NCBI RefSeq assembly: GCF_963921235.1
Contig: NC_086108.1
Location: 51,586,001-51,650,000, forward strand
Direction of reading: 5' to 3'
Source: Mobula hypostoma
Taxonomy: Eukaryota
Length of the DNA stretch: 64,000 nucleotides
Below the pieces are notes generated by a model. The model saw only the letters and a program-made list of their open reading frames with translations. It had not been told where the DNA came from and made no database searches. Made by a program: the position numbers and the translations under genes. This document shows, in pieces, positions 1 through 48,861 of this stretch. Each line of letters starts with the position of its first letter. Positions within the stretch are counted from its first letter, which is position 1.

Positions 1-3000
1 AAGGACTGAGGCACATGGGAACTCTACCACACAGAAGTTTTCCTCCAAGTCACATGGGAACTCTACCACACCCAGGTTTCCCTCCAAGAACGACAGGCAC
101 ATGGGAATTCTAACACACATAGGTTTCTCTCCCACTCACATGGGAACTCTACGACACACAGGTATCCCTCCGGGAGACGTGGGAACTCTACCACACACAG
201 GTTTCCCTCCGAGTCACATGGAACTCTACCACAAACAGGTTTCCCTCCGAGTCACGTGGCAACTCTACCACACACAGGTTTCCCTCCGAGTCACATGGGA
301 ACTCTACCACACACAGGTTTCCCTCCAAGGACTGCAGGCACATGGGAACTCTACCACACACAGGTTTCTCTCCTAGTCAGATGGGAACTCTACCACACAG
401 AGGTTTCCCTCCGAGTCACGTGGGATCTCTACCACACACAGGTTTCCCTCTGAGTCACATGGGAATTCTACTACACACAGTTTTCCCTCCGAGTCACATG
501 GGAACTCTACCACACACAGGTTTCCCTCCAAGGACTGCAGGCACATGGGAACTCTACCACACACAGGTTTCCCTCCGAGTCACATGGGAACTCTACCACA
601 CACAGGTTTCCCTCCGAGTCACGTGGGAACTCTACCACACACAGGTTTCCCTCCGAGTCACGTGGGAACTCTACCACACACAGGTTTCCCTCCGAGTCAC
701 GTGGGAACTCTACCACACACAGGTTTCCCTCCGAGTCACATGGGAACTCTACCACACACAGGTTTCCCTCCAAGGACTGCAGGCAAATGGGAACTCTACC
801 ACACACAGGTTTCCCTCCAAGGACTACAGGCACATGGGAATTCTAACACACATAGGTTTCTCTCCCACTCACATGGGAACTCTACCACACACAGGTTTCC
901 CTTCGAGTCACGTGGGAACTCTACCACACACAGGCTTCCCTCCAAGGACTGCAGGCACATGGGATCTCTACCACACACAGGTTCCCCTCCGAGTCACATG
1001 GGAACTCTACCACACCCAGGTTTCCCTCCAAGAACGACAGGCACATGGGAATTCTAACACACATAGGTTTCTCTCCCACTCACATGGGAACTCTACCACA
1101 CACAGGTTTCCCTCCGAGTCACATGGGAACTCTACCACACACAGGTTTCCCTTCGAGTCACGTTGGAACTCTACCACACACAGGTTTCCCTCCAAGGACT
1201 GCAGTCACATGGGAACTCTACCACACACAGGTTCCCCTCCGAGTCACATGGGAACTCTACCACACCCAGGTTTCCCTCCAAGAACGACAGGCACATGGGA
1301 ATTCTAACACACATAGGTTTCTCTCCCACTCACATGGGAACTCTACCACACACAGGTTTCCCTCCGAGTCACATGGGAACTCTACCACACACAGGTTTCC
1401 CTCCGAGTCACATGGGAACTCTACCACACACAGGTTTCCCTCCGAGTGACGTGGGAACTCTACCAAACACAGGTTTCCCTCCGAGTCACGTGGGAACTCT
1501 ACCACACACAGGTTTCCCTCCGAGTCACATGGGAACTCTACCACACACAGGTTTCCCTCCGAGTCACGTGGGAACTCTACCACACACAGGTTTCCCTCCG
1601 AGTCACGTGGGAACTCTACCACACACAGGTTTCCCTCCGAGTCACATGGGAACTCTACCACACACAGGTTTCCCTCCGAGTCACATGGGAACTCTACCAC
1701 ACACAGGTTTCCCTCCAAGGACTGCAGGCACATGGGAACTCTACCACACACAGGTTTCCCTCCGAGTCACATGGGAACTCTACCACACACAGGTTTCCCT
1801 CCGAGTCACATGGGAACTCTACCACACACAGGTTTCCCTCCGAGTCACGTGGGAACTCTACCACACACAGGTTTCCCTCCGAGTCACGTGGGAACTCTAC
1901 CACACACAGGTTTCCCTCCGAGTCACGTGGGAACTCTACCACACACAGGTTTCCCTCCAAGGACTGCAGGCACATGGCAACTCTACCACACCCAGGTTTC
2001 CCTCCAAGGACTGCAGGCATATGGGAAGTCTACCACCCACAGGTTTCCCTCCGAGTCACATGTGAACTCTACCACAAACAGGTTTCCCACGAAGGACTGA
2101 GGCACATGGGAACTCTACCACACAGAAGTTTTCCTCCAAGTCACATGGGAACTCTAAAACACCCAGGTTTCCCTCCAAGAACGACAGGCACATGGGAATT
2201 CTAACACACATAGGTTTCTCTCCCACTCACATGGGAACTCTACCACACACAGGTTTCCCTCCGAGTCACGTGGGAACTCTACCACACACAGGTTTCCCTC
2301 CGAGTCACATGGGAACTCTACCACACACAGGTTTCCCTCCGAGTCCACGTGGGAACTCTACCACACACAGGTTTCCCTCCGAGTCACGGGGGAACACTAC
2401 CACACACAGGTTTCCCTCCAAAGACTGCAGGCACATGGGAACTCTACCACACACAGGTTTCTCTCCTAGTCAGATGGGAACTCTACCACACAGAGGTTTC
2501 CCTCCGAGTCACGTGGGAACTCTACCACACACAGGTTTCCCTCCGAGTCACATGGGAACTCTACCACACACAGGTTTCCCTCCGAGTCACATGGGAACTC
2601 TACCACACACAGGTTTCCCTCCAAGGACTGCAGGCACATGGGAACTCTACCACACACAGGTTTCCCTCCGAGTCACATGGGAACTCTACCACACACAGGT
2701 TTCCCTCCGAGTCACATGGGAACTCTACCACACACAGGTTTCCCTCCGAGTCACGTGGGAACTCTACCACACACAGGTTTCCCTCCGAGTCACGTGGGAA
2801 CTCTACCACACACAGGTTTCCCTCCGAGTCACGTGGGAACTCTACCACACACAGGCTTCCCTCCAAGGACTGCAGGCACATGGCAACTCTACCACACCCA
2901 GGTTTCCCTCCAAGAACGACAGGCACATAGGAATTCTAACACACATAGGTTTCTCTCCCACTCACATGGGAACTCTACCACACACAGGTTTCCCTTCGAG

Positions 3001-6000
3001 TCACGTGGGAACTCTACCACACACAGGTTTCCCTCCAAGGACTGCAGGCACATGGGAACTCTACCACACACAGGTTTCCCTCCGAGTCACATGGGAACTC
3101 TACCACACCCAGGTTTCCCTCCAAGAACGACAGGCACATGGGAATTCTAACACACATAGGTTTCTCTCCCACTCACATGGGAACTCTACCACACACAGGT
3201 TTCCCTCCGAGTCACATGGGAACTCTACCACACACAGGTTTCCCTCCGAGTCACATGGGAACTCTACCACACACAGGTTTCCCTCCAAGGACTGCAGGCA
3301 CATGGGAACTCTACCACACACAGGTTTCCCTCCGAGTCACATGGGAACTCTACCACACACAGGTTTCCCTCCAAGGACTGCAGGCACATGGGAACTCTAC
3401 CACACACAGGTTTCCCTCCGAGTCACATGGGAACTCTACCACACACAGGTTTCCCTCCGAGTCACATGGGAACTCTACCACACACAGGTTTCCCTCCGAG
3501 TCACATGGGAACTCTACCACACACAGGTTTCCCTCCGAGTCACGTGGGAACTCTACCAAACACAGGTTTCCCTCCGAGTCACGTGGGAACTCTACCACAC
3601 ACAGGTTTCCCTCCGAGTCACATGGGAACTCTACCACACACAGGTTTCCCTCCGAGTCACGTGGGAACTCTACCACACACAGGTTTCCCTCCGAGTCACG
3701 TGGGAACTCTACCAAACACAGGTTTCCCTCCGAGTCACATGGGAACTCTACCACACACAGGTTTCCCTCCGAGTCACATGTGAACTCTACCACAAACAGG
3801 TTTCCCACGAAGGACTGAGGCACATGGGAACTCTACCACACAGAAGTTTTCCTCCAAGTCACATGGGAACACTACCACACACAGGTTTTCCTCCGAGTCA
3901 CATGGGAACTCGACCGCACACAGGTTTCCCTCCGAGTGACATGGGAACTCTACCACACACAGGTTTCCCTCCGAGTCACGTCGGAACTCTACCACACACA
4001 GGTTTCCCTCCGAGTCACATGTGAACTCTACCACAAACAGGTTTCCCACGAAGGACTGAGGCACATGGGAACTCTGCCACACAGAAGTTTTCCTCCAAGT
4101 CACATGGGAACACTACCACACACAGGTTTTCCTCCGAGTCACATGGGAACTTGACCGCACACAGGTTTCCCTCCGAGTGACGTGGGAACTCTACCACACA
4201 CAGGTTTCCCTCCGAGTCACATGGGAACTCTACCACACACAGGTTTCCCTCCAAGGACTGCAGGCACATGGGAACTCTACCACACACAGTTTTCCCTCCA
4301 AGGACTGCAGGCACATGGCAACTCTACCACACCCAGGTTTCCCTCCAAGGACTGCAGGCATATGGGAAGTCTACCACCCACAGGTTTCCCTACGAGTCAC
4401 GTGGGAACTCTACCAAACACATGTTTCCTTCCGAGTCACATGGGAACTCTACTACACACAGCTTTCCCTTCCGAGTCACGTGGGAACTCTACCACACACA
4501 GGTTTCCCTCCGAGTCACATGGGAACTCTACCACACACAGGTTTCCCTCCGAGTCACATGGGAACTCTACCACACACAGGTTTCCCTCCGAGTCACGTGG
4601 GAACTCTACCACACACAGGTTTCTCTCCAAGGACTGCAGGCATATGGCAACTCTACCACACACAGGTTTCCCTCCAAGGACTGCAGGCATATGGGAATTC
4701 TACCACACATAGGTTTCTCTCCCACTCACATGGGAAGTCTACCACACACAGGTTTCCCTCCGAGTCACGTGGGAACTCTACCACACACAGGTTTCCCTCC
4801 GAGTCACATGGGAACTCTACCACACACAGGTTTCCCTCCGAGTCACATGGGAACTCTACCACACACAGGTTTCCCTCCGAGTCACATGGGAACTCTACCA
4901 CACACAGGTTTCCCTCCGAGTCACATGGGAACTCTACCACACACAGGTTTCCCTCCGAGTCACGTGGGAACTCTACCACACACAGGTTTCCCTCCGAGTT
5001 ACGGGGGAACACTACGACACACAGGTTTCCCTCCGAGTCACATGGGAACTCTACCACACACAGGTTTCCCTCCGAGTCACATGGGAACTCTACCACACAC
5101 AGGTTTCCCTCCGAGTCACATGGGAACTCTACCACACACAGGTTTCCCTCCAAGGACTGCAGGCACATGGGAACTCTACCACACACAGGTTTTCCTCCGA
5201 GTCACATGGGAACTCTACCACACACAGGTTTCCCTCCGAGTCACGTGGGAACTCTACCACACACAGGTTTCCCTCCGAGTCACATGGGAACTCTACCACA
5301 CACAGGTTTCCCTCCGAGTCACGTGGGAACTCTACCACACACAGGTTTCCCTCCGAGTTACGGGGGAACACTACGACACACAGGTTTCCCTCCGAGGCAC
5401 ATGGGATCTCTACCACACACAGGTTTCCCTCCGTGTCATGTGGGAACTCTACCACACACAGGTTTCCCTCCGAGTCACGTGGGGACTCTACCACACACAG
5501 GTATCCCTCCAGGTGACATGGTAACTCTACTAAACACAGGTTTCCCTCCGAGTCACATGGGAACTCTACCAGACACAGTTTTCCCTCCGAGTCAAGTGGG
5601 AACTCTACCAAACACAGGTTTCCCTCCGAGTCACGTGGGAACTCTACCAAACACAGGTTTCCGTCCGAGTCACATGGGAACTCTACCACACACAGGTTTC
5701 CCTCCGAGTCACGTGGGAACTCTACCACACACAGGTTTCCCTCCGAGTTACGGGGGAACACTACGACACACAGGTTTCCCTCCGAGTCACATGGGAACTC
5801 TACCACACACAGGTTTCCCTCCAAGGACTGCAGGCACATGGGAACTCTACTACACACAGGTTTTCCTCCGAGTCACATGGGAACTCTACCACACACAGGT
5901 TTCCCTCCGAGTCACATGGGAACTCTACCACACACAGGTTTCCCTCCGAGTCACGTGGGAACTCTACCACACACAGGTTTCCCTCCGAGTCACATGGGAA

Positions 6001-9000
6001 CTCTACCACACACAGGTTTCCCTCCGAGTCACATGGGAACTCTACCACACACAGGTTTCCCTCCAAGATCTGCAGTCACATGGGAACTCTACCACTCACA
6101 GGTTTCCCTCCGAGTCACATGGGAACTCTATCAAACACAGGTTTCCCTCCGAGTCACGTGGGAACTCTACTACACACAGGTTTCCCTCCGAGTCACATGG
6201 GAACTCTACCACACACAGGTTTCCCTCCGAGTCACATGGGAACTCTACCACACACAGGTTTCCCTCCGAGTCACGTGGGAACTCTACCACACTCAGATTT
6301 CCCTCCGAGTCACATGGGAACTGTATCAGACACAGGTTTTCCTCCGAGTCACATGGGAACTCTACCTCACACAGGTTTCCCTAAAAGATCTGCAGTCACA
6401 TGGGAACTCTACCACTCACAGGTTTCCCTCCGAGTCACATGGGAACTCTACCACTCACAGGTTTCCCTCCGAGTCACATGGGAACTCTATCAAACACAGG
6501 TTTTCCTCCGACTCACGTGGCAACTCTACTACACACAGGTTTCCCTCCGAGTCACGTGGGAACTCTACCACACACAGGTTTCCCTCCGAGTCACATGGGA
6601 ACTCTACCACACACAGGTTTCCCTCCGAGTCACATGGAAACTCTACCACACACAGGTTTCCCTCCGAGTCACATGTGAACTCTACCACAAACAGGTTTCC
6701 CACGAAGGACTGAGGCACATGGGAACTCTACCACACACAAGTTTTCCTCCAAGTCACATGGGAACAATACCACACACAGGTTATCCTCCGAGTCACATGG
6801 GAACTCGACCGCACACAGGTTTCCCTCCGAGGGACGTGGGAACTCTACCACACACAGGTTTCCCTCCGAGTCACGTGGGAACTCTACCACACACAGGTTT
6901 CCCTCCGAGTCACATGGGAACTCTACCACACACAGGTTTCCCTCCAAGGACTGCAGGCATATGGGAATTCTACCACACATAGGTTTCTCTCCCACTCACA
7001 TGGGAAGTCTACCACACAAAGGTTTCCCTACGAGTCACGTGGGAAATCTACCACACACAGGTTTCCGTCCGAGTCACATGGCAACTCTACCACACACAGT
7101 TTTCCCTCCGAGTCACGTGGGAACTCTACCACACACAGGTTTCCCTCCGAGTCACGTGGGAACTCTACCACACACAGGTTTCCCTCCAAGGACTGCAGGC
7201 ACATGGGAACTCTACCACACACAGGTTTCCCTCCGAGTCACATGGGAACTCTACCACACACAGGTTTCCCTCCGAGTCACGTGGGAACTCTACCACACAC
7301 AGGTTTCCCTCCGAGTCACTGGGAACTCTACCACACACAGGTTTCCCTCCGAGGCACATGGGATCTACCACACACAGGTTTCCCTCCGGTCATGTGGGAA
7401 CTCTACCACACACAGGTTTCCCTCCGAGTCACGTGGGAACTCTACCACACACAGGTTTCCCTCCGAGTCACATGGGAACTCTACCACACACAGGTTTCCC
7501 TCCAAGGACTGCAGGCACATGGGAACTCTACCACACACAGGTTTCCCTCCGAGTCACATGGGAACTCTACCACACACAGGTTTCCCTCCGAGTCACGTGG
7601 GAACTCTACCACACACAGGTTTCCCTCCGAGTCACATGGGAACTCTACCACACACAGGTTTCCCTCCGAGTCACGTGGGAACTCTACCACACACAGGTTT
7701 CCCTCCGAGTCACTGGGAACTCTACCACACACAGGTTTCCCTCCGAGTCACATGGGAACTCTACCACACACAGGTTTCCCTCCGAGTCAGTGGGAACTCT
7801 ACCACACACAGGTTTCCCTCCGAGTCACGTGGGAACTCTACCACACACAGGTTTCCCTCCAGAGTCACATGGGAACTCTACCACACACAGGTTTCCCTCC
7901 GAGTCACATGGGAACTCTACCACACACAGGTTTCCCTCCGAGTCAAGTGGGAACTCTACCACACACAGGTTTCCCTCCGAGTCACGTGGGAACTCTACCA
8001 ACACACAGGTTTCCCTCCGAGTCACATGGGAACTCTACCACACACAGGTTTCCCTCCGAGTCACGTGGGAACTCTACCACACACAGGTTTCCCTCCGAGT
8101 CACGTGGGAACTCTACCACACACAGGTTTCCCTCCGAGTCACATGGGAACTCTACCACACACAGGTTTCCCTCCAAGGACTGCAGGCACATGGGAACTCT
8201 ACCACACACAGGTTTTCCTCCGAGTCACATGGGAACTCTACCACACACAGGTTTCCCTCCGAGTCACATGGGAACTCTACCACACACAGGTTTCCCTCCG
8301 AGTCACGTGGGAACTCTACCACACACAGGTTTCCCTCCGAGTCACATGGGAACTCTACCACACACAGGTTTCCCTCCGAGTCACGTGGGAACTCTACCAC
8401 ACACAGGTTTCCCTCCGAGGCACATGGGAACTCTACCACACACAGGTTTCCCTCCAAGGACTGCAGGCACATGGGAACTCTACCACACACAGGTTTCCCT
8501 CCGAGTCACATGGGAACTCTACCACACACAGGTTTCCCTCCGAGTCACGTGGGGACTCTACCACACACAGGTATCCCTCCAGGTGACATGGTAACTCTAC
8601 TACACACAGGTTTCCCTCCGAGTCACATGGGAACTCTACCACACACAGGTTTCCCTCCGAGTCACATGGGAACTCTACCACACACAGGTTTCCCTCCGAG
8701 TCACATGGGAACTCTACCACACACAGGTTTCCCTCCAAGGACTGCAGGCACATGGGAACTCTACCACACACAGGTTTCCCTCCGAGTCACATGGGAACTC
8801 TACCACACACAGGTTTCCCTCCGAGTCACGTGGGAACTCTACCACACACAGGTTTCCCTCCGAGTCACATGGGAACTCTACCACACACAGGTTTCCCTCC
8901 GAGTCACGTGGGAACTCTACCACACACAGGTTTCCCTCCGAGTCACATGGGAACTCTACCACACACAGGTTTCCCTCCGAGTCACATGGGAACTCTACCA

Positions 9001-12000
9001 CACACAGGTTTCCCTCCGAGTCAGTGGGAACTCTACCACACACAGGTTTCCCTCCGAGTCACGTGGGACTCTACCACACACAGGTTTCCCTCCGAGTCAC
9101 ATGGGAACTCTACCACACACAGGTTTCCCTCCGAGTCACATGGGAACTCTACCACACACAGGTTTCCCTCCGAGTCAAGTGGGAACTCTACCACACACAG
9201 GTTTCCCTCCGAGTCACGTGGGAACTCTACCACACACAGGTTTCCCTCCGAGTCACATGGGAACTCTACCACACACAGGTTTCCCTCCGAGTCACGTGGG
9301 AACTCTACCACACACAGGTTTCCCTCCGAGTCACGTGGGAACTCTACCACACACAGGTTTCCCTCCGAGTCACATGGGAACTCTACCACACACAGGTTTC
9401 CCTCCAAGGACTGCAGGCACATGGGAACTCTACCACACACAGGTTTCCCTCCGAGTCACATGGGAACTCTACCACACACAGGTTTCCCTCCGAGTCACAT
9501 GGGAACTCTACCACACACAGGTTTCCCTCCGAGTCACGTGGGAACTCTACCACACACAGGTTTCCCTCCGAGTCACATGGGAACTCTACCACACACAGGT
9601 TTCCCTCCGAGTCACATGGGAACTCTACCACACACAGGTTTCCCTCCAAGACTGCAGTCACATGGGAACTCTACCACCACAGGTTTCCCTCCGAGTCACA
9701 TGGGAACTCTACCACACACAGGTTTTCCTCCGACTCACGTGGGAACTCTACCACACACAGGTTTCCCTCCGAGTCACGTGGGAACTCTACCACACACAGG
9801 TTTCCCTCCGAGTCACGTGGGAACTCTACCACACACAGGTTTCCCTCCGAGTCACATGGGAACTCTACCACACACAGGTTTCCCTCCGAGTCACATGGGA
9901 ACTCTACCACACACAGGTTTCCCTCCGAGTAACGGCAGGCACATGGGAACTCTACCACACACAGGTTTCCCTCCGAGTCACATGGGAACTCTACCACACA
10001 CAGGTTTCCCTCCGAGTCACATGGGAACTCTACCACACACAGGTTTCCCTCCGAGTCACATGGGAACTCTACCACACACAGGTTTCCCTCCGAGTCACGT
10101 GGGAACTCTACCACACACAGGTTTCCCTCCGAGTCACATGGGAACTCTACCACACACAGGTTTCCCTCCAAGGACTGCAGGCACATGGGAATTCTACCAC
10201 ACATAGGTTTCTCTCCCACTCACATGGGAACTCTACCACACACAGGTTTCCCTCCGAGTCACGTGGGAACTCTACCACACACAGGTTTCCCTCCGAGTCA
10301 CGTGGGAACTCTACCAAACACAGGTTTCCCTCCGAGTCACATGGGAACTCTACCACACACAGGTTTCCCTCCGAGTCACGTGGGAACTCTACCACACACA
10401 GGTTTCCCTCCAAGGACTGCAGGCACATGGGAACTCTACCACACACAGGTTTTCCTCCGAGTCACATGGGAACTCTACCACACACAGGTTTCCCTCCGAG
10501 TCACATGGGAACTCTACCACACACAGGTTTCCCTCCGAGTCACGTGGGAACTCTACCACACACAGGTTTCCCTCCGAGTCACATGGGAACTCTACCACAC
10601 ACAGGTTTCCCTCCGAGTCACATGGGAACTCTACCACACACAGGTTTCCCTCCGAGTCACGTGGGAACTCTACCTCACACAGGTTTCCCTTCGAGTCACA
10701 TGGGAACTCTACCACACACTGGTTTCCCTCCAAGGACTGCAGGCACATGGGAACTCTACCACACACAGGTTTCCCTCCGAGTCACATGGGAACTCTACCA
10801 CACACAGGTTTCCCTCCGAGTCACGTGGGAACTCTACCACACACAGGTTTCCCTCCGAGTCACATGGGAACTCTACCACACACAGGTTTCCCTCCGAGTC
10901 ACGTGGGAACTCTACCACACACAGGTTTCCCTCCGAGTCACGTGGGAACTCTACCAAACACAGGTTTCCCTCCGAGTCACATGGGAACTCTACCACACAC
11001 AGGTTTCCCTCCGAGTCACGTGGGAACTCTACCACACACAGGTTTCCCTCCGAGTCACATGGGAACTCAACCACACACAGGTTTCCCTCCGAGTCACGTG
11101 GGAACTCTACCACACACAGGTTTCCCTCCGAGTCACATGGGAACTCTACCACACACAGGTTTCCCTCCGAGTCACATGGGAACTCTACCACACACAGGTT
11201 TCCCTCCGAGGCACATGGGAACTCTACCACACACAGGTTTCCCTCCAAGGACTGCAGGCACATGGGAACTCTACCACACACAGGTTTCCCTCCCAGTCAC
11301 ATGGGAACTCTACCACACACAGGTTTCCCTCCGAGTCACGTGGGAACTCTACCACACACAGGTTTCCCTCCGAGTCACATGGGAACTCTACCACACACAG
11401 GTTTCCCTCCGAGTCACGTGGGAACTCTACCACACACAGGTTTCCCTCCGAGTCACGTGGGAACTCTACCACACACAGGTTTCCCTCCGAGTCACATGGG
11501 AACTCTACCACACACAGGTTTCCCTCCGAGTCACATGGGAACTCTACCACACACAGGTTTCCCTCCGAGTCACATGGGAACTCTACCACACACAGGTTTC
11601 CCTCCAAGGACTGCAGGCACATGGGAACTCTACCACACACAGGTTTCCCTCCGAGTCACATGGGAACTCTACCACACACAGGTTTCCCTCCGAGTCACAT
11701 GGGAACTCTACCACACACAGGTTTCCCTCCGAGTCACATGGGAACTCTACCACACACAGGTTTCCCTCCGAGTCACGTGGGAACTCTACCACACACAGGT
11801 TTCCCTCCGAGTCACATGGGAACTCTACCACACACAGGTTTCCCTCCAAGGACTGCAGGCACATGGGAATTCTACCACACACAGGTTTCTCTCCCACTCA
11901 CATGGGAACTCTACCACACACAGGTTTCCCTCCGAGTCACGTGGGAACTCTACCACACACAGGTTTCCCTCCGAGTCACATGGGAACTCTACCACACACA

Positions 12001-15000
12001 GGTTTCCCTCCGAGTCACGTGGGAACTCTACCACACACAGGTTTCCCTCCGAGTCACGTGGGAACTCTACCACACACAGGTTTCCCTCCGAGTCACATGG
12101 GAACTCTACCACACACAGGTTTCCCTCCGAGTCACATGGGAACTCTACCACACACAGGTTTCCCTCCGAGTCACATGGGAACTCTACCACACACAGGTTT
12201 CCCTCCGAGTCACATGGGAACTCTACCACACACAGGTTTCCCTCCGAGTCACATGGGAACTCTACCACACACAGGTTTCCCTCCGAGTCAGTGGGAACTC
12301 TACCACACACAGGTTTCCCTCCGAGTCACATGGGAACTCTACCACACACAGGTTTCCCTCCGAGTCACATGGGAACTCTACCACACACAGGTTTCCCTCC
12401 AAGGACTGCAGGCACATGGGAACTCTACCACACACAGGTTTCTCTCCCAGTCACATGGGAACTCTACCACACACAGGTTTCCCTCCGAGTCACGTGGGAA
12501 CTCTACCACACACAGGTTTCCCTCCGAGTCACATGGGAACTCTACCACACACAGGTTTCCCTCCGAGTCACGTGGGAACTCTACCACACACAGGTTTCCC
12601 TCCGAGTACGGGAACCTACACACACAGGTTTCCCTCCGAGTCACATGGGAACTCTACCACACACAGGTTTCCCTCCGAGTCATGTGGGAACTCTACCACA
12701 CACAGGTTTCCCTCCGAGTCACGTGGGAACTCTACCACACACAGGTTTCCCTCCGAGTCACATGGGAACTCTACCACACACAGGTTTCCCTCCGAGTCAC
12801 ATGGGAACTCTACCACACACAGGTTTCCCTCCGAGTCACATGGGAACTCTACCACACACAGGTTTCCCTCCGAGTCACGTGGGAACTCTACCACACACAG
12901 GTTTCCCTCCGAGTCACATGGGAACTCTACCACACACAGGTTTCCCTCCGAGTCACGTGGGAACTCTACCACACACAGGTTTCCCTCCGAGTCACGTGGG
13001 AACTCTACCACACACAGGTTTCCCTCCGAGTCACATGGGAACTCTACCACACACAGGTTTCCCCAAGGACTGCAGGCACATGGGAACTCTACCACACACA
13101 GGTTTCCCTCCGAGTCACATGGGAACTCTACCACACACAGGTTTCCCTCCGAGTCACATGGGAACTCTACCACACACAGGTTTCCCTCCGAGTCACGTGG
13201 GAACTCTACCAAACACAGGTTTCCCTCCGAGTCACATGGGAACTCTACCACACACAGGTTTCCCTCCGAGTCACGTGGGAACTCTACCACACACAGGTTT
13301 CCCTCCAAGGACTGCAGGCACATGGGAACTCTACCACACACAGGTTTCCCTCCAAGGACTGCAGGCACATGGGAACTCTACCACACACAGGTTTCCCTCC
13401 GAGTCAGTGGGAACTCTACCACACACAGGTTTCCCTCCGAGTCACGTGGGAACTCTACCACACACAGGTTTCCCTCCGAGTCACATGGGAACTCTACCAC
13501 ACACAGGTTTCCCTCCGAGTCACATGGGAACTCTACCACACACAGGTTTCCCTCCGAGTCACATGGGAACTCTACCACACACAGGTTTCCCTCCGAGTCA
13601 CATGGGAACTCTACCACACACAGGTTTCCCTCCAAGGACTGCAGGCACATGGGAACTCTACCACACACAGGTTTCTCTCCGAGTCACATGGGAACTCTAC
13701 CACACACAGGTTTCCCTCCGAGTCACGTGGGAACTCTACCACACACAGGTTTCCCTCCGAGTCACATGGGAACTCTACCACACACAGGTTTCCCTCCGAG
13801 TCACGTGGGAACTCTACCACACACAGGTTTCCCTCCGAGTCACATGGGAACTCTACCACACACAGGTTTCCCTCCGAGTCACATGGGAACTCTACCACAC
13901 ACAGGTTTCCCTTCGAGTCACATGGGAACTCTACCACACACAGGTTTCCCTCCGAGTCACGTGGGAACTCTACCACACACAGGTTTCCCTCCGGTCACAT
14001 GGGAACTCTACAACACAGGTTTCCCTCCGAGTCACATGGGAACTCTACCACACACAGGTTTCCCTCCGAGTCACATGGGAACTCTACCACACACAGGTTT
14101 CCCTCCAAGTCACGTGGGAACTCTACCAAACACAGGTTTCCTTCCGAGTCACATGGGAACTCTACCACACACAGGTTTCCCTCCGAGTCACGTGGGAACT
14201 CTACCACACACATGTCTCCCTCCGAGTCACGTGGGAACTCTACCACACACAGGTTTCCCTCCGAGTCACATGGGAACTCTACCACACACAGGTTTCCCTC
14301 CAAGGACTGCAGGCACATGGGAACTCTACCACACACAGGTTTTCCTCCGAGTCACATGGGAACTCTACCACACACAGGTTTCCCTCCGAGTCACATGGGA
14401 ACTCTACCACACACAGGTTTCCCTCCGAGTCACGTGGGAACTCTACCACACACAGGTTTCCCTCCGAGTCACATGGGAACTCTACCACACACAGGTTTCC
14501 CTCCGAGTCACATGGGAACTCTACCACACACAGGTTTCCCTCCAAGGACTGCAGACACATGGGAACTCTACCACACACAGGTTTCCCTCCGAGTCACATG
14601 GGAACTCTACCACACACAGGTTTCCCTCCGAGTCACATGGGAACTCTACCACACACAGGTTTCCCTCCGAGTCACGTGGGAACTCTACCACACACAGGTT
14701 TCCCTCCGAGTCACGTGGGAACTCTACCACACACAGGTTTCCCTCCGAGTCACATGGGAACTCTACCACACACAGGTTTCCCTCCGAGTCACATGGGAAC
14801 TCTACCACACACAGGTTTCCCTCCGGCAGGCACATGGGAACTCTACCACACACAGGTTTCCCTCCGAGTCACATGGGAACTCTACCACACACAGGTTTCC
14901 CTCCGAGTCACATGGGAACTCTACCACACACAGGTTTCCCTCCGAGTCACATGGGAACTCTACCACACACAGGTTTCCCTCCGAGTCACGTGGGAACTCT

Positions 15001-18000
15001 ACCACACACAGGTTTCCCTCCAAGGACTGCAGGCACATGGCAACTCTACCACACACAGGTTTCCCTCCAAGGACTGCAGGCACATGGGAATTCTACCACA
15101 CATAGGTTTCTCTCCCACTCACATGGGAACTCTACCACACACAGGTTTCCCTCCGAGTCACGTGGGAACTCTACCACACACAGGTTTCCCTCCGAGTCAC
15201 ATGGGAACTCTACCACACACAGGTTTCCCTCCGAGTCACATGGGAACTCTACCACACACAGGTTTCCCTCCGAGTCACGTGGGAACTCTACCACACACAG
15301 GTTTCCCTCCGAGTCACATGGGAACTCTACCACACACAGGTTTCCCTCCGAGTCACATGGGAACTCTACCACACACAGGTTTCCCTCCGAGTCACGTGGG
15401 AACTCTACCACACACAGGTTTCCCTCCGAGTCACATGGGAACTCTACCACACACAGGTTTCCCTCCGAGTCACATGGGAACTCTACCACACACAGGTTTC
15501 CCTCCGAGTCACATGGGAACTCTACCACACACAGGTTTCCCTCCGAGTCACGTGGGAACTCTACCACACACAGGTTTCCCTCCGAGTCACATGGGAACTC
15601 TACCACACACAGGTTTCCCTCCAAGGACTGCAGGCACATGGGAACTCTACCACACACAGGTTTCCCTCCGAGTCACATGGGAACTCTACCACACACAGGT
15701 TTCCCTCCGAGTCACGTGGGAACTCTACCAAACACAGGTTTCCCTCCGAGTCACATGGGAACTCTACCACACACAGGTTTCCCTCCGAGTCACGTGGGAA
15801 CTCTACCACACACAGGTTTCCCTCCGAGTCACATGGGAACTCTACCACACACAGGTTTCCCTCCGAGTCACATGGGAACTCTACCACACACAGGTTTCCC
15901 TCCGAGTCACGTGGGAACTCTACCACACACAGGTTTCCCTCCGAGTCACGTGGGAACTCTACCACACACAGGTTTCCCTCCGAGTCACATGGGAACTCTA
16001 CCACACACAGGTTTCCCTCCAAGGACTGCAGGCACATGGGAACTCTACCACACACAGGTTTCCCTCCGAGTCACATGGGAACTCTACCACACACAGGTTT
16101 CCCTCCGAGTCACGTGGGAACTCTACCACACACAGGTTTCCCTCCGAGTCACGTGGGAACTCTACCACACACAGGTTTCCCTCCGAGTCACATGGGAACT
16201 CTACCACACACAGGTTTCCCTCCGAGTCACGTGGGAACTCTACCACACACAGGTTTCCCTCCGAGTCACATGGGAACTCTACCACACACAGGTTTCCCTC
16301 CAAGGACTGCAGGCACATGGGAACTCTACCACACACAGGTTTCTCTCCCAGTCACATGGGAACTCTACCACACACAGGTTTCCCTCCGAGTCACGTGGGA
16401 ACTCTACCACACACAAGTTTTCCTCCGAGTCACATGGGAACTCTACCACACACAGGTTTCCCTCCGAGTCACATGGGAACTCTACCACACACAGGTTTCC
16501 CTCCGAGTCACGTGGGAACTCTACCACACACAGGTTTCCCTCCGAGTCACATGGGAACTCTACCACACACAGGTTTCCCTCCGAGTCACATGGGAACTCT
16601 ACCACACACAGGTTTCCCTCCGAGTCACATGGGAACTCTACCACACACAGGTTTCCCTCCGAGTCACATGGGAACTCTACCACACACAGGTTTCCCTCCG
16701 AGTCACATGGGAACTCTACCACACACAGGTTTCCCTCCAAGGACTGCAGGCACATGGGAACTCTACCACACACAGGTTTCCCTCCGAGTCACATGGGAAC
16801 TCTACCACACACAGGTTTCCCTCCGAGTCACGTGGGAACTCTACCACACACAGGTTTCCCTCCGAGTCACATGGGAACTCTACCACACACAGGTTTCCCT
16901 CCGAGTCACGTGGGAACTCTACCACACACAGGTTTCCCTCCGAGTCACGTGGGAACTCTACCACACACAGGTTTCCCTCCGAGTCACATGGGAACTCTAC
17001 CACACACAGGTTTCCCTCCGAGTCACATGGGAACTCTACCACACACAGGTTTCCCTCCAAGATCTGCAGTCACATGGGAACTCTACCACTCACAGGTTTC
17101 CCTCCGAGTCACATGGGAACTCTATCAAACACAGGTTTTCCTCCGAGTCACGTGGGAACTCTACCACACACAGGTTTCCCTCCGAGTCACGTGGGAACTC
17201 TACCACACACAGGTTTCCCTCCGAGTCACGTGGGAACTCTACCACACACAGGTTTCCCTCCGAGTCACATGGGAACTCTACCACACACAGGTTTCCCTCC
17301 GAGTCACATGGGAACTCTACCACACACAGGTTTCCCTCCGAGTCACATGGGAACTCTACCACACACAGGTTTCCCTCCAAGGACTGCAGGCACATGGGAA
17401 CTCTACCACACACAGGTTTCCCTCCGAGTCACATGGGAACTCTACCACACACAGGTTTCCCTCCGAGTCACATGGGAACTCTACCACACACAGGTTTCCC
17501 TCCGAGTCACATGGGAACTCTACCACACACAGGTTTCCCTCCGAGTCACGTGGGAACTCTACCACACACAGGTTTCCCTCCAAGGACTGCAGGCACATGG
17601 GAACTCTACCACACACAGGTTTCCCTCCAAGGACTGCAGGCACATGGGAACTCTACCACACACAGGTTTCCCTCCGAGTCACATGGGAACTCTACCACAC
17701 ACAGGTTTCCCTCCGAGTCACGTGGGAACTCTACCACACACAGGTTTCCCTCCAAGGACTGCAGGCACATGGGAACTCTACCACACACAGGTTTCCCTCC
17801 AAGGACTGCAGGCACATGGGAACTCTACCACACACAGGTTTTCCTCCGAGTCACATGGGAACTCTACCACACACAGGTTTCCCTCCGAGTCACGTGGGAA
17901 CTCTACCAAACACAGGTTTCCCTCCGAGTCACATGGGAACTCTACCACACACAGGTTTCCCTCCGAGTCACGTGGGAACTCTACCACACACAGGTTTCCC

Positions 18001-21000
18001 TCCGAGTCACGTGGGAACTCTACCACACACAGGTTTCCCTCCGAGTCACATGGGAACTCTACCACACACAGGTTTCCCTCCGAGTCACATGGGAACTCTA
18101 CCACACACAGGTTTCCCTCCGAGTCACGTGGGAACTCTACCACACACAGGTTTCCCTCCGAGTCACGTGGGAACTCTACCACACACAGGTTTCCCTCCGA
18201 GTCACATGGGAACTCTACCACACACAGGTTTCCCTCCGAGTCACATGGGAACTCTACCACACACAGGTTTCCCTCCGAGTCACGTGGGAACTCTACCACA
18301 CACAGGTTTCCCTCCGAGTCACATGGGAACTCTACCACACACAGGTTTCCCTCCGAGTCACATGGGAACTCTACCACACACAGGTTTCCCTCCGAGTCAC
18401 ATGGGAACTCTACCACACACAGGTTTCCCTCCGAGTCACATGGGAACTCTACCACACACAGGTTTCCCTCCAAGGACTGCAGGCACATGGGAACTCTACC
18501 ACACACAGGTTTCCCTCCGAGTCACGTGGGAACTCTACCACACACAGGTTTCCCTCCGAGTCACATGGGAACTCTACCACACACAGGTTTCCCTCCGAGT
18601 CACGTGGGAACTCTACCACACACAGGTTTCCCTCCGAGTCACATGGGAACTCTACCGCACACAGGTTTCCCTCCGAGTCACATGGGAACTCTACCACACA
18701 CAGGTTTCCCTCCGAGTCACGTGGGAACTCTACCACACACAGGTTTCCCTCCGAGTCACGTGGGAACTCTACCACACACAGGTTTCCCTCCGAGTCACAT
18801 GGGAACTCTACCACACACAGGTTTCCCTCCGAGTCACATGGGAACTCTACCACACACAGGTTTCCCTCCAAGGACTGCAGGCACATGGGAACTCTACCAC
18901 ACACAGGTTTCCCTCCGAGTCACATGGGAACTCTACCACACACAGGTTTCCCTCCGAGTCACATGGGAACTCTACCACACACAGGTTTCCCTCCGAGTCA
19001 CATGGGAACTCTACCACACACAGGTTTCCCTCCGAGTCACGTGGGAACTCTACCAAACACAGGTTTCCCTCCATTTCACGTGGGAACTCTACCAAACACA
19101 GGATTCCCTCCGAGTCACATGGGAACTCTACCACACACAGGTTTCCCTCCGAGTCACATGGGAACTCTACCACACACAGGTTTCCCTCCGAGTTACATGG
19201 GAACTCTATCACACACAGGTTTCCCTCCGAGTCAAGTGGGAACTCTACCACACACAGGTTTCCCTCCGAGTCACATGGGAACTCTACCACACACAGGTTT
19301 CCCTCCGAGTCACATGGGAACTCTACCACACACAGGTTTCCCTCCAAGGACTGCAGGCACATGGGAACTCTACCACACACAGGTTTCCCTCCGAGTCACA
19401 TGGGAACTCTACCACACACAGGTTTCCCTCCGAGTCACATGGGAACTCTACCACACACAGGTTTCCCTCCGAGTCACATGGGAACTCTACCACACACAGG
19501 TTTCCCTCCGAGTCACGTGGGAACTCTACCACACACAGGTTTCCCTCCGAGTCACATGGGAACTCTACCACACACAGGTTTCCCTCCGAGTCACGTGGGA
19601 ACTCTACCACACACAGGTTTCCCTCCGAGTCACATGGGAACTCTACCACACACAGGTTTCCCTCCGAGTCACATGGGAACTCTACCACACACAGGTTTCC
19701 CTCCGAGTCACATGGGAACTCTACCACACACAGGTTTCCCTCCGAGTCACATGGGAACTCTACCACACACAGGTTTCCCTCCGAGTCACGTGGGAACTCT
19801 ACCACACACAGGTTTCCCTCCGAGTCACATGGGAACTCTACCACACACAGGTTTCCCTCCGAGTCACATGGGAACTCTACCACACACAGGTTTCCCTCCA
19901 AGGACTGCAGGCACATGGGAACTCTACCACACACAGGTTTCCCTCCGAGTCACGTGGGAACTCTACCACACACAGGTTTCCCTCCGAGTCACGTGGGAAC
20001 TCTACCACACACAGGTTTCCCTCCAAGGACTGCAGGCACATGGGAACTCTACCACACACAGGTTTCCCTCCGAGTCACGTGGGAACTCTACCACACACAG
20101 GTTTCCCTCCGAGTCACGTGGGAACTCTACCACACACAGGTTTCCCTCCGAGTCACGTGGGAACTCTACCACACACAGGTTTCCCTGCAAGGACTGCAGA
20201 CACATGGGAACTCTACCACACACAGGTTTCCCTCCGAGTCACGTGGGAACTCTACCACACACAGGTTTCCCTCCGAGTCACATGGGAACTCTACCACACA
20301 CAGGTTTCCCTCCAAGGACTGCAGGCACATGGGAACTCTACCACACACAGGTTTCCCTCCGAGTCACATGGGAACTCTACCACACACAGGTTTCCCTCCG
20401 AGTCACATGGGAACTCTACCACACACAGGTTTCCCTCCAAGGACTGCAGGCACATGGGAACTCTACCACACACAGGTTTCCCTCCGAGTCACATGGGAAC
20501 TCTACCACACACAGGTTTCCCTCCGAGTCACATGGGAACTCTACCACACACAGGTTTCCCTCCGAGTCACATGGGAACTCTACCACACACAGGTTTCCCT
20601 CCGAGTCACATGGGAACTCTACCACACACAGGTTTCCCTCCGAGTCACATGGGAACTCTACCACACACAGGTTTCCCTCCGAGTCACATGGGAACTCTAC
20701 CACACACAGGTTTCCCTCCGAGTCACATGGGAACTCTACCACACACAGGTTTCCCTCCAAGGACTGCAGGCACATGGGAACTCTACCACACACAGGTTTC
20801 CCTCCGAGTCACATGGGAACTCTACCACACACAGGTTTCCCTCCAAAGGCACATGGGAACTCTACCACACACAGGTTTCCCTCCGAGTCACATGGGAACT
20901 CTACCACACACAGGTTTCCCTCCAAGGACTGCAGGCACATGGGAACTCTACCACACACAGGTTTCCCTCCGAGTCACATGGGAACTCTACCACACACAGG

Positions 21001-21870
21001 TTTCCCTCCGAGTCACATGGGAACTCTACCACACACAGGTTTCCCTCCAAGGACTGCAGGCACATGGGAACTCTACCACACACAGGTTTCCCTCCGAGTC
21101 ACATGGGAACTCTACCACACACAGGTTTCCCTCCGAGTCACGTGGGAACTCTACCACACACAGGTTTCCCTCCAAGGACTGCAGGCACATGGGAACTCTA
21201 CCACACACAGGTTTCCCTCCGAGTCACGTGGGAACTCTACCACACACAGGTTTCCCTCCGAGTCACATGGGAACTCTACCACACACAGGTTTCCCTCCGA
21301 GTCACATGGGAACTCTACCACACACAGGTTTCCCTCCGAGTCACATGGGAACTCTACCACACACAGGTTTCCCTCCGAGTCACGTGGGAACTCTACCACA
21401 CACAGGTTTCCCTCCAAGGACTGCAGGCACATGGGAACTCTACCACACACAGGTTTCCCTCCGAGTCACATGGGAACTCTACCACACACAGGTTTCTCTC
21501 TCAGTCACATGGGAACTCTTCCACACACAGGTTTCCCTCCGAGTCACGTGGGAACTCTACCACGCACAGGTTTCCCTCCGAGTCACATGGGATCTCTACC
21601 GCACACAGGTTTCCCTCCGAGTCACATGGGAAGTCTACCGCACACAGGTTTCCCTCCAAGTCACGTGGGAACTCTACCACACACAGGTTTCCCTCCGAGT
21701 CACGTGGGAACTCTACCACACACAGGTTTCCCTCCGGGTCATGTGGGAACTCTACCACACACAGGTTTCCCTCTGAGTCACATGGGAACTCTACCACACA
21801 CAGGTTTCCCTCCAAGGACTGCAGGCACATGGGAACTCTACCACACACAGGTTTCTCTCCCTGTCACATG
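1..21870 (+). repeat. Large minisatellite/satellite array: 39-bp unit CAC(A/G)TGGGAACTCTACCACACACAGGTTTCCCTCCGAGT plus 47-bp variant ending ...CCTCCAAGGACTGCAGG; continues beyond the window's left edge
   Basis: Tandem periodicity is directly visible; about 540 units estimated from length; the ORF track shows 13-aa periodic peptides in three + frames and one - frame. Confidence 0.99.
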
Positions 21871-22539
21871 CCGTCCTCAGTTGGATTTACACTCGGTGCT
21901 GAGATTTCTCCTTGACTGCTCACTTTCTCCTGCATATATTCCCTCTCTTGGTCCTTGCCTCAGTCCACTTCCTTCAAGGTGACCTAGAATTGAAAAATTA
22001 ATGACAAGTTTAAGAACTGTTGAGGCTACAATGCCCCCACCTCCACTTTTTGATAAAAGTAACATATTTCCTATCGGGAAAGAAAAGATTGTATTGCAAG
22101 TTAAATATCATACTGTGACTAAATTTGGTATTATGTTTATTTATGTTTTAGTTGAACTCCACAAGATATTTATTTTATTCAATATATTTCTGAGAACTCC
22201 CCATCTTCTATCAAATCTCTCCATACCTCTGACATACAACTTGCTCTGACCTCCACTTCTCTAAGTATGACTATGTCCCTCAAATTACCTCACTTGGGTG
22301 TGTTAAAACAAGATAAAGACTTGAAGAAAAAGGAGATTGTAAACTGGAGTGACTAAAGTAAGGAATTCCAAATTATTTATGTAATGGTAGTGAATGGGGG
22401 TGTCTGTAACTCATAAAGGTATGCTCAAGGGTTTTAGCCATGGATGTGTCAGGGTAGGGTAGGGCAAATCATCAACAAAGTCAATTTATGTTACAACTTC
22501 AGGATATTTCACAAACTCATCAGATAAAAATTGACATTA

Positions 22540-22970
22540 TCATGAAAGGTAACTTAGGATATCTAACCAAAAGCTCAGACAAAGAATTAGATTCTAAAGT
22601 GCATTGAAAGAAAGAATGGCTTTGGATCCAATTTCAGAGCTTGAGGAATAGATAGCCTATGATATACTCACTAGTAATAGTACAAAAGACATGAGTGATG
22701 GACAATTGGGAGAATACTGAACTGTTGGAAGATTGTAGGGATAAAGGAAGTCACAGAGATATAGAAGAGCAATATCATAGATTTAAACATAAGAAAATCA
22801 ATATTAAAATTGAGGATTTATTGAAACATTAACCAATACAAGTTAAAAGAAGGGATAATGGGAGAACAGTATAACTACCATCTGTCTGGGTGAGTTTTGG
22901 ACATGCTGATATTGTCGCAGTTAGACTGCAGAAGATGGTCAAGTTAGCATTGAAATAATCAACTCAAGGG
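22540..22970 (-). mobile_element. Highly degenerate L2-like LINE 3' remnant
   Basis: Resembles recalled antisense L2 3' sequence (GTCACAGAGATA..., GATTTAAACATAAGAA..., GAGTTTTGGA); very decayed, boundaries approximate. Confidence 0.3.
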
Positions 22971-23349
22971 ACAAAGCAATTAAATTCATCTTCAACAATC
23001 TGTGATAGAGGCACCTGTCCATAATAGTATTTGAAGAAATGATTACTGCACTTCAGGAGAAGGAACAGCAGAGGGGAGAGAAACAGAGTCAATGTTTATT
23101 GCCAGGGGCCTTTTGTTAGAACCGGACAGAGAGGAAGCAAGCACATTTTAAGTTGCAGAAAGTGGGAGTAGAGAACTATTGGAATGTTTGTGATTGGGAG
23201 CAGAACAAAGATGGAAAGATAACAATTATGTTAAGAACAAATAGTCAGAAATGGAAGAAAAAGGAAAACAAATTTAAAGGAAAAGGCATAGCCATATCAT
23301 GACCGGTGCATAGTAGCTTAACCTAATTGTGTTCTGCCTATAAAATGTG

Positions 23350-23620
23350 CTGCAGTTCTTTCCTGAGGTGCTTTGACAAAGCCTCCCAAACCCATGGCTT
23401 CTCCTACCAACAAGGACAAGGTAACACTACTACCATGTTTCTCTCCATTTCACACACCATCCTCACTTAAAAGTATATTGTTATTCTTTCATCGCTACTG
23501 GTCTGAATTCTGGAACTTAACCCACAACATTGTAGTAGGGGTACATTCAGTTAAAGGAGACAACTTCTCAGGAACAATTAGAGATGGGAATAAATGTTGG
23601 TTTTATCAATGATGCATAGA
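23350..23620 (+). mobile_element. Degenerate 3' end of a CR1/L2-group LINE (same family as the satellite's progenitor)
   Basis: CCTCCCAAACCC...CACACACCATCCT...TCTTTCATCG...CTGGAACT...CAATTAGAGATGGGAATAAATG matches a recalled elasmobranch LINE ORF2 C-terminus (SF...WNSLP) and tail; 26/32 ungapped identity with the array's 3' junction (23437-23468 vs 21851-21882). Confidence 0.6.
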
Positions 23621-24269
23621 GTTTTTGCAATTTTTTAGAAATAGTTACTTTTTAAATTGTATTATCCTTAAAATTGTTAATGTTCTGCTGGAATAGATTT
23701 TTTGAATTTTCCCATTTTTCTAATTTTATCACCATGCATTCTCAGCTTCAAGAAACACTTGCTCATGGTGCTGAGGACATGCTAGCATGTGACTGGCAAT
23801 ACCCCACTGCATAAATCAAGGCTACACAAGGCTCTAACAGCAATTATTAATCAAGATGTCAAGTTTCTCCCTGCATCAAGCCAAGAAATATAGTCTCTGT
23901 ATTCTCCCAAAATAGAGTAGTTCATACTCCTGGGTTAAATTTCATTTTGCTATCTGTTCATCCATTTTACCAGCCTGTCAATCAATGCTTTCTATTCCTC
24001 AGTATTGTGAATCACAATAAGTTTTCTCATCTTCATGTTCCTTCTCAAGCTTTCCTCACCGTGAAACACAACTCAAACATGTGAAAGGCATAATGTTTGT
24101 AGGCTGCCACAACAGATTCACATTAAAAATGCCAGAAAAAGTTGAAACATCTCCATTCAATTGTGAGTTTTACATTTCACAGCAAGTTTTAATAAATAAT
24201 CTTGCCGACTGGAGATGTACATTTTTCAGATTTCAACAAACATTAAAATAAAAAATTCCTTACTTCTTT

Positions 24270-47659: not shown

Positions 47660-48291
47660 GTACTAATGGTGTTGAGGTCTTCACTGGATGAACTGTATCT
47701 GCATTTACATAAAAGTCTAGTGTAACTGTGGTAACATCTTTTAGAAGTTACAATATCAATCCAATGAATGCAATTGCATTCAGGAAATACGCATTTCTTG
47801 AGTTTTCTTTGGATTGAGTTAATAGAAAAAGTATTAAGGAAACAAATTCTACAACAATGTCTTTAGGCACTGCCAATGTTCTAGGGACGGCCTTGGAAAG
47901 AATGAATTGTTGGAACTTGGTGATCTGTCATTTTTTATATAAAAAGGGAAAATGTTATTTTAAATGTTGTCCCTTCTTTAAACTATATATACATATCCAA
48001 TAATAGAACCATGTTTTCCTTATTGCCTGGGAATATACGGTACATGCATTTATAACATGCATTTGTTCATACATCCTTTGGAATCGAAGAAAATTGAAGC
48101 GATTCCTCTGGGTCTATTCACTGAAATGAGTTCTATTCATGGCTATAGATAAAATTCTACAAATTCAGTGTAAATAGCCTCAAAGGTGTCAATTGTTGAA
48201 GTTGGATGAGCACATCATGTTTATCAGAAATACACTCTTTGTCACTTTGAAGATGGGAGATTGAAGAAATTAATATAGTGGCATTAGTTAC

Positions 48292-48841: not shown

Positions 48842-48843
48842 TT

Positions 48844-48861
48844 TGGTATCAGGAGTGGGAT
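48844..48861 (+). promoter_or_regulatory. Primer-binding site, tRNA-Leu(CAG)
   Basis: TGGTATCAGGAGTGGGAT, 2 nt after the LTR; 17/18 match to the complement of the vertebrate tRNA-Leu(CAG) 3' end (TGGTGTCAGGAGTGGGAT, recalled). Confidence 0.85.

Follow-up and report, generated by a model that had tools for sequence, protein, structure and literature searches.

A mixed 39- and 47-bp satellite array of Mobula hypostoma: colinearity with a dispersed repeat family and a likely origin in place

Introduction

Satellites that consist of pieces of retroelements, with an extended end unit and with units that vary in length, have been described (PMC10702118, PMC9659126). The closest described systems include the SINE-derived satellites (sSats) of squamates, which can occupy thousands of loci in one genome and whose long loci contain 320 to over 1200 units, with less variation than in the family from which they derive (Vassetzky, Kosushkin and Ryskov 2023, PMC10702118). 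LINEs have also given rise to satellites, viz. chicken HinfI (SCR1) from CR1, PROsat of Phodopus and Pvc20 of Phoca from L1 ORF2, and the common cetacean satellite from the 3' end of L1 (PMC9659126, PMC6947457). In humans, at least 7,276 tandem repeats (23%) are of transposon origin (PMC6947457, PMC3389668), and the Haber-Louis model for minisatellites envisages a first duplication between direct repeats of 5-10 bp followed by local amplification (PMC6947457). Since the parent has as a rule disappeared, loci that record the birth of a satellite directly are of value.

Here we analyze a window of 64,000 nucleotides from Mobula hypostoma (contig NC_086108.1, positions 51,586,001 to 51,650,000; all features below lie on the + strand), in which a first-pass annotation made from the letters alone had proposed a satellite of more than 22 kb born in situ from the 3' end of a LINE ORF2. 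The tandem units of the array are colinear with part of a dispersed repeat family, which is probably a CR1/L2-group LINE represented by its 3' end. The array probably arose in place by the duplication of a short stretch of one decayed family copy between short direct repeats, followed by unequal exchange. No published description of the repeat was found in the literature covered; Repbase, Dfam and most subscription papers lay outside this scope, hence the result is not proof that the repeat is undescribed.

Results

The window begins within a tandem array in which units of 39 bp and 47 bp, with a 30-bp body in common, are mixed. The array extends over positions 1..21869 and is open at the left end of the window. 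TRF locates the array at 8-21870 (period 39, 544 copies, 90% matches), and cutting at a 14-base anchor produces 541 intervals, of which 440 are 39 bp long, 75 are 47 bp long and 26 have other lengths. One of three majority forms is matched exactly by 373 of the 515 units of the two main lengths, and the mean is 0.66 differences per unit. The part at 1..7000 is more diverged (0.9-2.0 differences per unit, by kb) and contains block duplications of 0.25-3 kb, in which rare variants are common to blocks at offsets of 250, 749, 944, 1194, 1718, 1843, 2093 and 3037 bp. The part at 7001..21000 is highly homogeneous (0.04-0.44 differences per unit, by kb), and the 39- and 47-mers follow one another in irregular order. 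No regular higher-order period of the two lengths was seen across the whole array, where the spacing between 47-type units ranges from 1 to 17 units without a fixed period. The units are about 98% alike among themselves, whereas they are about 60-65% alike to the dispersed family when 30-base pieces are compared.

An open reading frame of 4999 codons (6983-21982) is present within the array. It was rejected as a gene on the grounds that the majority 39- and 47-mers are both stop-free on the + strand, that the frame is pieced together from three phases, and that an equally long run appeared in 34% of 10,000 frame randomisations. The array DNA presumably has no function of its own.

In run X1, words from the unit exceed the depth of single-copy sequence by a factor of thousands, and even the largest possible overcount leaves about 40 kb of repeat; for the source run, rough depth-based bounds are 40 kb and 1.3 Mb, with a best guess of about 70 kb. 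These X1 data are a test of the assembly and not an independent estimate, since X1 may be the source sample. A satellite of more than 22 kb, as first proposed, has to be inferred because the window itself covers 21.9 kb of it, and the rough depth estimates favor the larger extent.

At its right end the array terminates in a parent-like segment (21814..21891) that consists of a 47-mer head, a unit body and a family-like tail, as indicated by the occurrence of CACATG at 21826 and 21865, a spacing of 39 bp, and by gapless colinearity with dispersed copies (counted by eye). The evidence noted in the first-pass annotation, viz. an ungapped match of 21851-21882 to a decayed sequence at 23437-23468 (hereafter the remnant), is reproduced by our analyses: 26 of the 32 positions are identical, and this is the top ungapped match on both strands of 21901-64000, the runner-up having 20 identities and the best of 1000 shuffles 23. 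In blastn the match grows to 61 columns (73.8% identity, E 2.5e-6), and the local alignment of junction and remnant scores 102.5, compared with a shuffle maximum of 81.5 (0/1000 as good). Within the 32 positions, 16/19 are identical inside the repeat unit and 10/13 outside it, so that just 13 positions are non-unit. The tail beyond the repeat unit (21870..21891) is in register with the dispersed family, agreeing with the remnant at 14/22 positions (P ~1e-4) and with each of two loose-end consensuses at 13/22 (among the loose ends listed). About 22 bp of family-like sequence thus follow the right junction without a change of register, a result that supports the earlier proposal of a preserved parental junction.

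Beyond this point the resemblance ends. The 44 bases that follow the tail agree with the remnant at 9/44 positions, which is the chance level, and 424 of 1000 shuffles aligned equally well when 21887-22100 was compared with it. Because the family similarity stops at about 21891, the parent would be a copy without the 3' tail expected of a retrotransposed element. The adjoining sequence (21892..22734) is a single-copy right flank, common to two related organisms and covered at flat, single-contig depth in runs X1, X5 and X7. The source flank contig ends at 21832, where the first 31-mer found at the junction alone is located.

The remnant is a second, decayed copy of the dispersed family (23340..23620, limits approximate), recognized by piles of extra contigs and by a gapped alignment to the last unit. 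Extra contigs (>=80%) stack on 23385-23514 in all four runs, as is expected of a dispersed family of many copies, and on 23580-23644 in three. The motif CAAGGAC (23411-23417) and the second motif noticed earlier are both present upstream of the junction match, and the satellite reads in its frame as had been reported. Contigs that lie on the unit up to 21816 continue with letters that fit the remnant at 23/30 and 23/30 positions in the same register (7 contigs in X1 and 4 in X7), and contigs that lie on the remnant have upstream letters that fit the unit without gaps at 19/30 (4 contigs in X5 and 5 in X7) or, for one X9 contig, 18/30; these counts were made by eye among the loose ends listed, and their binomial P values are 2e-7 to 6e-4 at a match rate of 0.30. 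Unit and remnant are therefore joined gaplessly and in one register by contigs of dispersed copies, which identifies the unit as a colinear part of a dispersed family of repeats. The remnant itself is a homologue and not the parent because it has deletions in its counterpart of the amplified stretch; it was also ruled out as the displaced tail of the parent, since it has its own copy of that stretch.

The dispersed family is likely the 3' end of a CR1/L2-group LINE ORF2, a label for which none of the searches below gave a match, and the remnant is presumably a 5'-truncated LINE 3' end. When read across frames, the remnant has YK...RTR...SF...WN...VV in the order, and with a spacing similar to that, of the CR1 and L2 ends elsewhere in the window, a resemblance seen by eye that is not significant in a frameshift-aware test. 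In this test, with six CR1/L2 end peptides of the window, 0, 8, 11, 14, 30 and 100 of 100 shuffles scored as well, and the alignment of the peptide with 0/100 ended outside the expected place. No Pfam domain was found in three translations. A protein word search for an ORF2 link brought up one candidate among longer proteins, which did not score, and no candidate among proteins of near length. Four phmmer hits among 1.84 billion proteins were all spurious, being summed weak matches in long repeat proteins; a profile of 7 window translations gave a single unrelated protein at E 7.5 among 1590 candidates, and the ESM Atlas held no usable match to the junction frame. The likely ORF2 frame of the remnant (P0002) was compared with Pfam and, as DNA, in the frameshift-aware test, and the large searches used another frame. 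The protein-search misses carry little weight because the queries were at most 55-59 residues long and decayed. DNA pattern scans for the family yielded 0 and 0 in metagenomes, 0 in prokaryote genomes and, in viral sequences, 3 loci and then 0, the match in all three loci being confined to the pattern itself, as expected by chance; none of these scans recovered a full-length family member. Hence, the part of the original proposal that derives the unit from a dispersed element stands, and its identification with ORF2 found no match in any search.

The flank contig of a related organism (B) differs from the source at 48 positions over ~1870 bases (2.6%), and a second organism (C) covers parts of the flank. 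Both in the source and in organism B, the sequence that adjoins the tail is single-copy. In organism B the flank adjoins satellite-type sequence at the junction, and its contig ends at 21826, the satellite branch point where the junction path departs from the majority unit; the unexpanded LINE fragment that was anticipated at the orthologous site of a relative was not found in this contig. By a rough estimate, the relative at 2.6% divergence seems to have far less of the repeat. The low repeat depth of organism C is not counted as evidence because its run is small (71 million letters; 10/30 bins covered).

Discussion

The array is probably explained by the following series of events. Short direct repeats would have mediated the duplication of a short stretch that lay between them in one already decayed family copy, and unequal exchange would then have amplified it. 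The block duplications with their shared rare variants speak for this explanation, and the mechanism has been described for minisatellites (Haber-Louis model, PMC6947457). There may have been two starting duplications over one 30-bp body, of 39 bp between CACA-type repeats and of 47 bp between AAG-type repeats, which would have become intermixed through unequal crossing-over or gene conversion. A short array would predate the split from organisms B and C, with strong growth in the source lineage. For the 39-bp register the short flanking repeat is shown in part: CACATG recurs in the terminal segment, although it may have been homogenised there by the array itself, and the remnant has the CACA of this motif and no more. 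The 47-bp register is weakly shown, and the two slippage registers of the first-pass annotation are thus upheld in part for the shorter unit and weakly for the longer one. Hairpin-assisted slippage was rejected (z -1.2 to +0.6 in six of six folds).

The 47-mer could instead be a later variant of the 39-mer, produced by an 8-bp insertion and substitutions, and not a second register of parental duplication. We consider this rather unlikely, even though the 47-bp spacing in the terminal segment is flanked by 2 matching bases only and the 47-mer head, for which a single dispersed copy is informative, fits that copy at 6/12 positions (counted by eye, among the loose ends listed), a comparison that does not discriminate since the 39-mer alternative fits at 5/12. 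The AAGGAC of the head occurs in the remnant upstream of the matching stretch, the dispersed-copy contigs fit the array as far as CCAAG at 21816, which is the 47-mer form of the site, and the last unit beside the tail has a 47-mer head, for which the prior chance is ~15% (82/541).

Less probable still is an origin of the repeat from this family at another site, in which case the array came here later, either together with its short tail or by recombination into a resident family copy. An extended end unit is not in itself proof of birth in place because SINE-derived satellites usually have this form, those of squamates at many loci (PMC10702118). The family-like tail is also limited to ~22 bp, the remaining 3' end is missing, and the left junction of the array falls outside the window. 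However, the flank beside the tail is single-copy in both the source and organism B, and the loose ends behind 21867-21870 are all repeat units with no second type of flank (3 rows, among the loose ends listed). Birth in place is preferred.

It is improbable that the dispersed parent was non-autonomous (either a SINE or an element derived from a LINE and sharing its 3' end) or belonged to another class of repeat. The family copies seen are short pieces only, and no protein or profile search tied them to ORF2; but the order of residues in the remnant resembles the CR1/L2 ends of the window, with the limits on this comparison given above, and an elasmobranch LINE end agrees with it. Further, L2/CR1/Rex is the main LINE class of batoids (10.64898/2026.10.27.761883). 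It is very improbable that an assembly artefact accounts for how long or how homogeneous the array is: long runs of identical units are hard to assemble and the odd lengths of 26/541 units could be read errors, but the ~40 kb implied by the X1 depth (X1 may be the source sample) and the return of rare variants in ordered blocks argue against it.

The locus still displays one junction and two lengths of unit, together with what may be a recent expansion specific to the lineage; the array is therefore a possible test case for satellite birth mediated by short repeats, and it could also serve as a case for the transition from minisatellite to satellite. A more specific reading, in which one decayed LINE copy seeded two competing registers at one site and the repeat, small in two relatives, grew ten- to twenty-fold here within the 2.6% flank divergence, is tentative and, in our view, doubtful. 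If the two registers and the recent growth were true, satellite birth, register competition and sudden expansion could be timed across close species.

With respect to known systems, and as far as the parts of the cited sources drawn upon here describe them, the array may be set beside the sSats. As in these satellites, the unit comes from the interior of a retroelement and is colinear with a dispersed element, one end unit extends past the repeat into parent sequence (here at the right end, the left end being outside the window), the units are closer to each other than to the family (60-63% to dispersed pieces), and they exist in length variants, the subvariants of sSats alternating within loci (PMC10702118). 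Unlike sSats, whose parent is a tRNA-derived SINE, whose units are 67-215 bp long and which occupy up to thousands of loci, the present array likely has a LINE end as its parent, has units of 39 and 47 bp irregularly mixed in one array, and has one known flank, which is single-copy. With the LINE-derived satellites it likely has in common that ORF2 or the 3' part of a LINE gave rise to a tandem repeat, and it differs from them in that the whole unit is very short and colinear and that a junction tail is attached, a comparison that does not extend to the unit sizes and junctions of those satellites. Its unit falls in the size range of transposon-derived minisatellites, but it has more than 540 units where minisatellites usually have up to ~100, and the flanking repeats, partly shown, are shorter (3-6 bp) than those of the Haber-Louis model. 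That retroelements can give rise to tandem repeats is already published; this array adds a case and leaves the model unchanged.

Relationship of the Repeat Unit to a Dispersed Family

A first-pass annotation proposed that the tandem array of 39-bp and 47-bp units, which is open at the left end of the window, was born in situ from the 3' end of a LINE ORF2. The sequence match on which it drew, between the array's right end and a decayed copy of a dispersed family 1.6 kb downstream (the remnant, ~23340-23620), is real: 21851-21882 and 23437-23468 agree at 26/32 positions, the top ungapped match over 21901-64000 when both strands are considered (runner-up 20), and none of 1000 shuffled queries scored >23. 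Of these positions, 16/19 lie within the repeat unit and 10/13 outside it, and blastn of the junction against the remnant aligns 61 columns at 73.8% (E 2.5e-6).

Twelve public sequencing runs were considered, viz. four from organism A (the possible source), four from organism B (0.51 of words), one from organism C (0.06) and three without words; four of the twelve (X1, X5, X7, and X9, with X5 and X7 representing one sample) were compared with 21760-23700 at 80% likeness. Contigs that fit the array to 21816 and then diverge (7 in X1, 4 in X7) continue with sequence matching the remnant from 23450 at 23/30 positions each. In the other direction, contigs lining up with the remnant from 23443 onward (4 in X5, 5 in X7) agree with the last unit at 19/30 positions in their upstream letters; for a single X9 contig the figure is 18/30. 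All of these matches are ungapped, and where the contigs of this second set align, the remnant shows a 3-bp gap relative to the last unit. The counts were made by eye among the loose ends listed, with 157 further loose ends outside that set; assuming a match rate of 0.30, the counts have binomial P values between 2e-7 and 6e-4. The scored set leaves aside one more listed loose end, which lies before 23450 and has 3 contigs in each of X5 and X7, and extra contigs pile up over 23385-23514 in all four runs. This pile, together with the loose ends linking unit and remnant, shows that the repeat unit belongs to a dispersed family, of which it is a colinear piece. The remnant is a second copy that decayed independently, and not the parent of the array.

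Like the first-pass annotation, we read this family as the 3' end of a CR1/L2-group LINE that is abundant in elasmobranchs, and the LINE label is very likely correct. The unit's membership in a dispersed family upholds one part of the proposed LINE ORF2-end origin; the LINE identity drew no support from protein and profile searches, since word searches, phmmer (1.84 billion proteins), Pfam, and Atlas gave no usable LINE match, misses that weigh little for queries so short and decayed. Pattern scans for outside copies of the family found none. Read across frames, the remnant contains YK, RTR, SF, WN, and VV, by eye in the order and rough spacing of the window's other CR1 and L2 ends. When it was aligned, allowing frameshifts, with six CR1/L2 end peptides, 0, 8, 11, 14, 30, and 100 of 100 shuffles were as good, and the best-scoring peptide ended in the wrong place, the query being short and decayed. 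Published passages describe L2/CR1/Rex as the main LINE class of batoids (bioRxiv 10.64898/2026.10.27.761883) and CR1-like elements as common in sharks (PMC1513397).

Structure and Homogeneity of the Array

The array ends at 21870 and the window starts within it (TRF: 8-21870, period 39, 544 copies). Cut at a 14-base anchor, it falls into 541 intervals, of which 440 measure 39 bp and 75 measure 47 bp, the remaining 26 having other lengths; the 39-mer and 47-mer have a common 30-bp body and different linkers. Three majority forms account exactly for 373/515 standard-length units, with a mean of 0.66 differences per unit. The first 7 kb are more divergent (0.9-2.0 differences per unit) and contain block duplications of 0.25-3 kb, recognised by shared rare variants; 7-21 kb is near-uniform (0.04-0.44), and divergence rises again in the last kb (0.65). 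The 47-type units are irregularly spaced, with gaps of 1-17 units. Unequal exchange with local homogenisation would yield this pattern of divergence and spacing. The repeat unit folded no better than shuffles in 6/6 folds (z -1.2 to +0.6).

The most frequent 39-mer variant is a single A/G site (278 vs 162 of 440 units) that toggles CACATG and CACGTG, both E-box-like hexamers; CpG transition accounts for the switch without any function. Because the units are stop-free and the array is highly homogeneous, a stop-free frame of 4999 codons spans 6983-21982, and only 6 stop triplets occur beyond 6983, all frames counted. As a gene this frame was rejected as a chance product, an equally long run being found in 34% of frame randomisations, and it could mislead gene callers.

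The two unit lengths had been read as two slippage registers of one segment. For the 39-mer this agrees with the terminal segment (21814-21891), where CACATG is repeated at exactly 39 bp (21826 and 21865), as a short-direct-repeat model predicts; the remnant has only CACA in common at this site, and the last copy may be array-homogenised. In favour of the 47-mer register, the dispersed copies fit the array as far as AAG at 21814-21816, AAGGAC is located upstream in the remnant, and the tail-adjoining unit bears the 47-mer head, as do 82/541 units; against it, a spacing of 47 bp in the terminal segment brings just 2 bases into agreement, and the X9 contig matches the 47-mer head at 6/12 and the 39-mer alternative at 5/12. 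Reading the two lengths as two registers is plausible and has been demonstrated in part only.

Right Junction and Flank

The junction tail (21870-21891) that follows the last unit agrees in register with the remnant at 14/22 positions (P about 1e-4), and 13/22 positions agree with each of two loose-end consensuses (P 4e-3, taking a rate of 0.30). Over the 44 bases after it, agreement with the remnant drops to 9/44, and when 21887-22100 was aligned with the tail of the remnant, 424/1000 shuffles did as well. Family similarity stops at about 21891, and the parent fragment therefore stops about 22 bp past the unit, without the remaining family 3' end, which would require a later deletion or insertion. 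Across the flank (21890-22734), depth stays flat at a single contig in X1, X5, and X7. For the right junction, the family tail and single-copy flank favour birth of the array at this site.

Presence in Related Organisms

The orthologous contig of organism B has 48 differences in about 1870 bases (2.6%) and ends in both runs at 21826, the 31-mer where the junction path departs from the majority unit; within the window's array, the first 30 bases of this 31-mer are present 285 times. The source's contig ends at 21832, the first junction-unique 31-mer. B's stop at a satellite branch point indicates that satellite-type sequence, either one unit or many, adjoins the same flank in B. Organism B also has repeat-unit contigs, some of which show the 8-bp length difference and some of which do not, and organism C has a contig holding several units in tandem. 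At 9 listed places within 21909-22337 where B departs from the window, contigs of C have the same letter as B, so B and C are nearer to one another than either is to the source.

Repeat amount was computed as summed word depth over single-copy depth, and the tool warns that depths are no copy number; on this footing the bounds are 40 kb-1.3 Mb in X1, 1.6-50 kb in X5, and 3-92 kb in X7. A simulation on the array of the window gave an overcount of 17.6; corrected for this, the amounts are about 70 kb in X1 vs 3-5 kb in X5/X7, again no copy number. They hint at a recent expansion in organism A and are not a measurement of it.

Other Elements in the Window

A direct-repeat pair of ~550 bp (48290-48844 and 59798-60357, 94-96% identity) frames a broken LTR retroelement with a zinc knuckle (frame 51166-51903; PF00098, E 4.9e-7) and a weak aspartyl protease match (51777-52394). 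Nested within it are a LINE on the reverse strand, with a reverse transcriptase hit (PF00078, E 2.4e-22) at 55450-56220, and a repeat-rich insertion (about 49200-50650). The latter is related to another in opposite orientation (44860-46110), which interrupts a CR1-like fragment; their arms (45478-45582 vs 50134-50238) are 81% alike, and both contain short internal tandem repeats (27-68 bp). At 39064-39285 there is an 83-nt inverted repeat, 88% complementary, its arms 56 nt apart.

Proposed Origin and Comparison with Known Systems

The observations at this locus comprise family colinearity, a right-junction tail, a single-copy flank, homogeneity with block duplications, and presence in relatives. 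A family copy may have inserted here and then decayed, after which 39-bp and 47-bp duplications over one body would have arisen where repeats of 3-6 bp allowed slippage or unequal exchange. Both unit types would have been mixed and amplified through unequal crossing-over or conversion, and growth may have continued in organism A. The mechanism implies no function for the array.

With a single junction and a probable LINE label, the array is a real and fairly clean case of a known process. Passages in reviews record satellites from CR1 and L1 ORF2 or 3' ends (PMC9659126, PMC6947457), and one covers the Haber-Louis model of minisatellite birth (PMC6947457). In humans, transposons are the source of 23% or more of minisatellites and satellites (PMC3389668), and shark satellites are reported in passages that are silent on their origin (PMC11406177). 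SINE-derived satellites of squamates have a unit from the element interior and an extended end unit, and their loci contain 320 to over 1200 units with length variants and alternating subvariants (PMC10702118).
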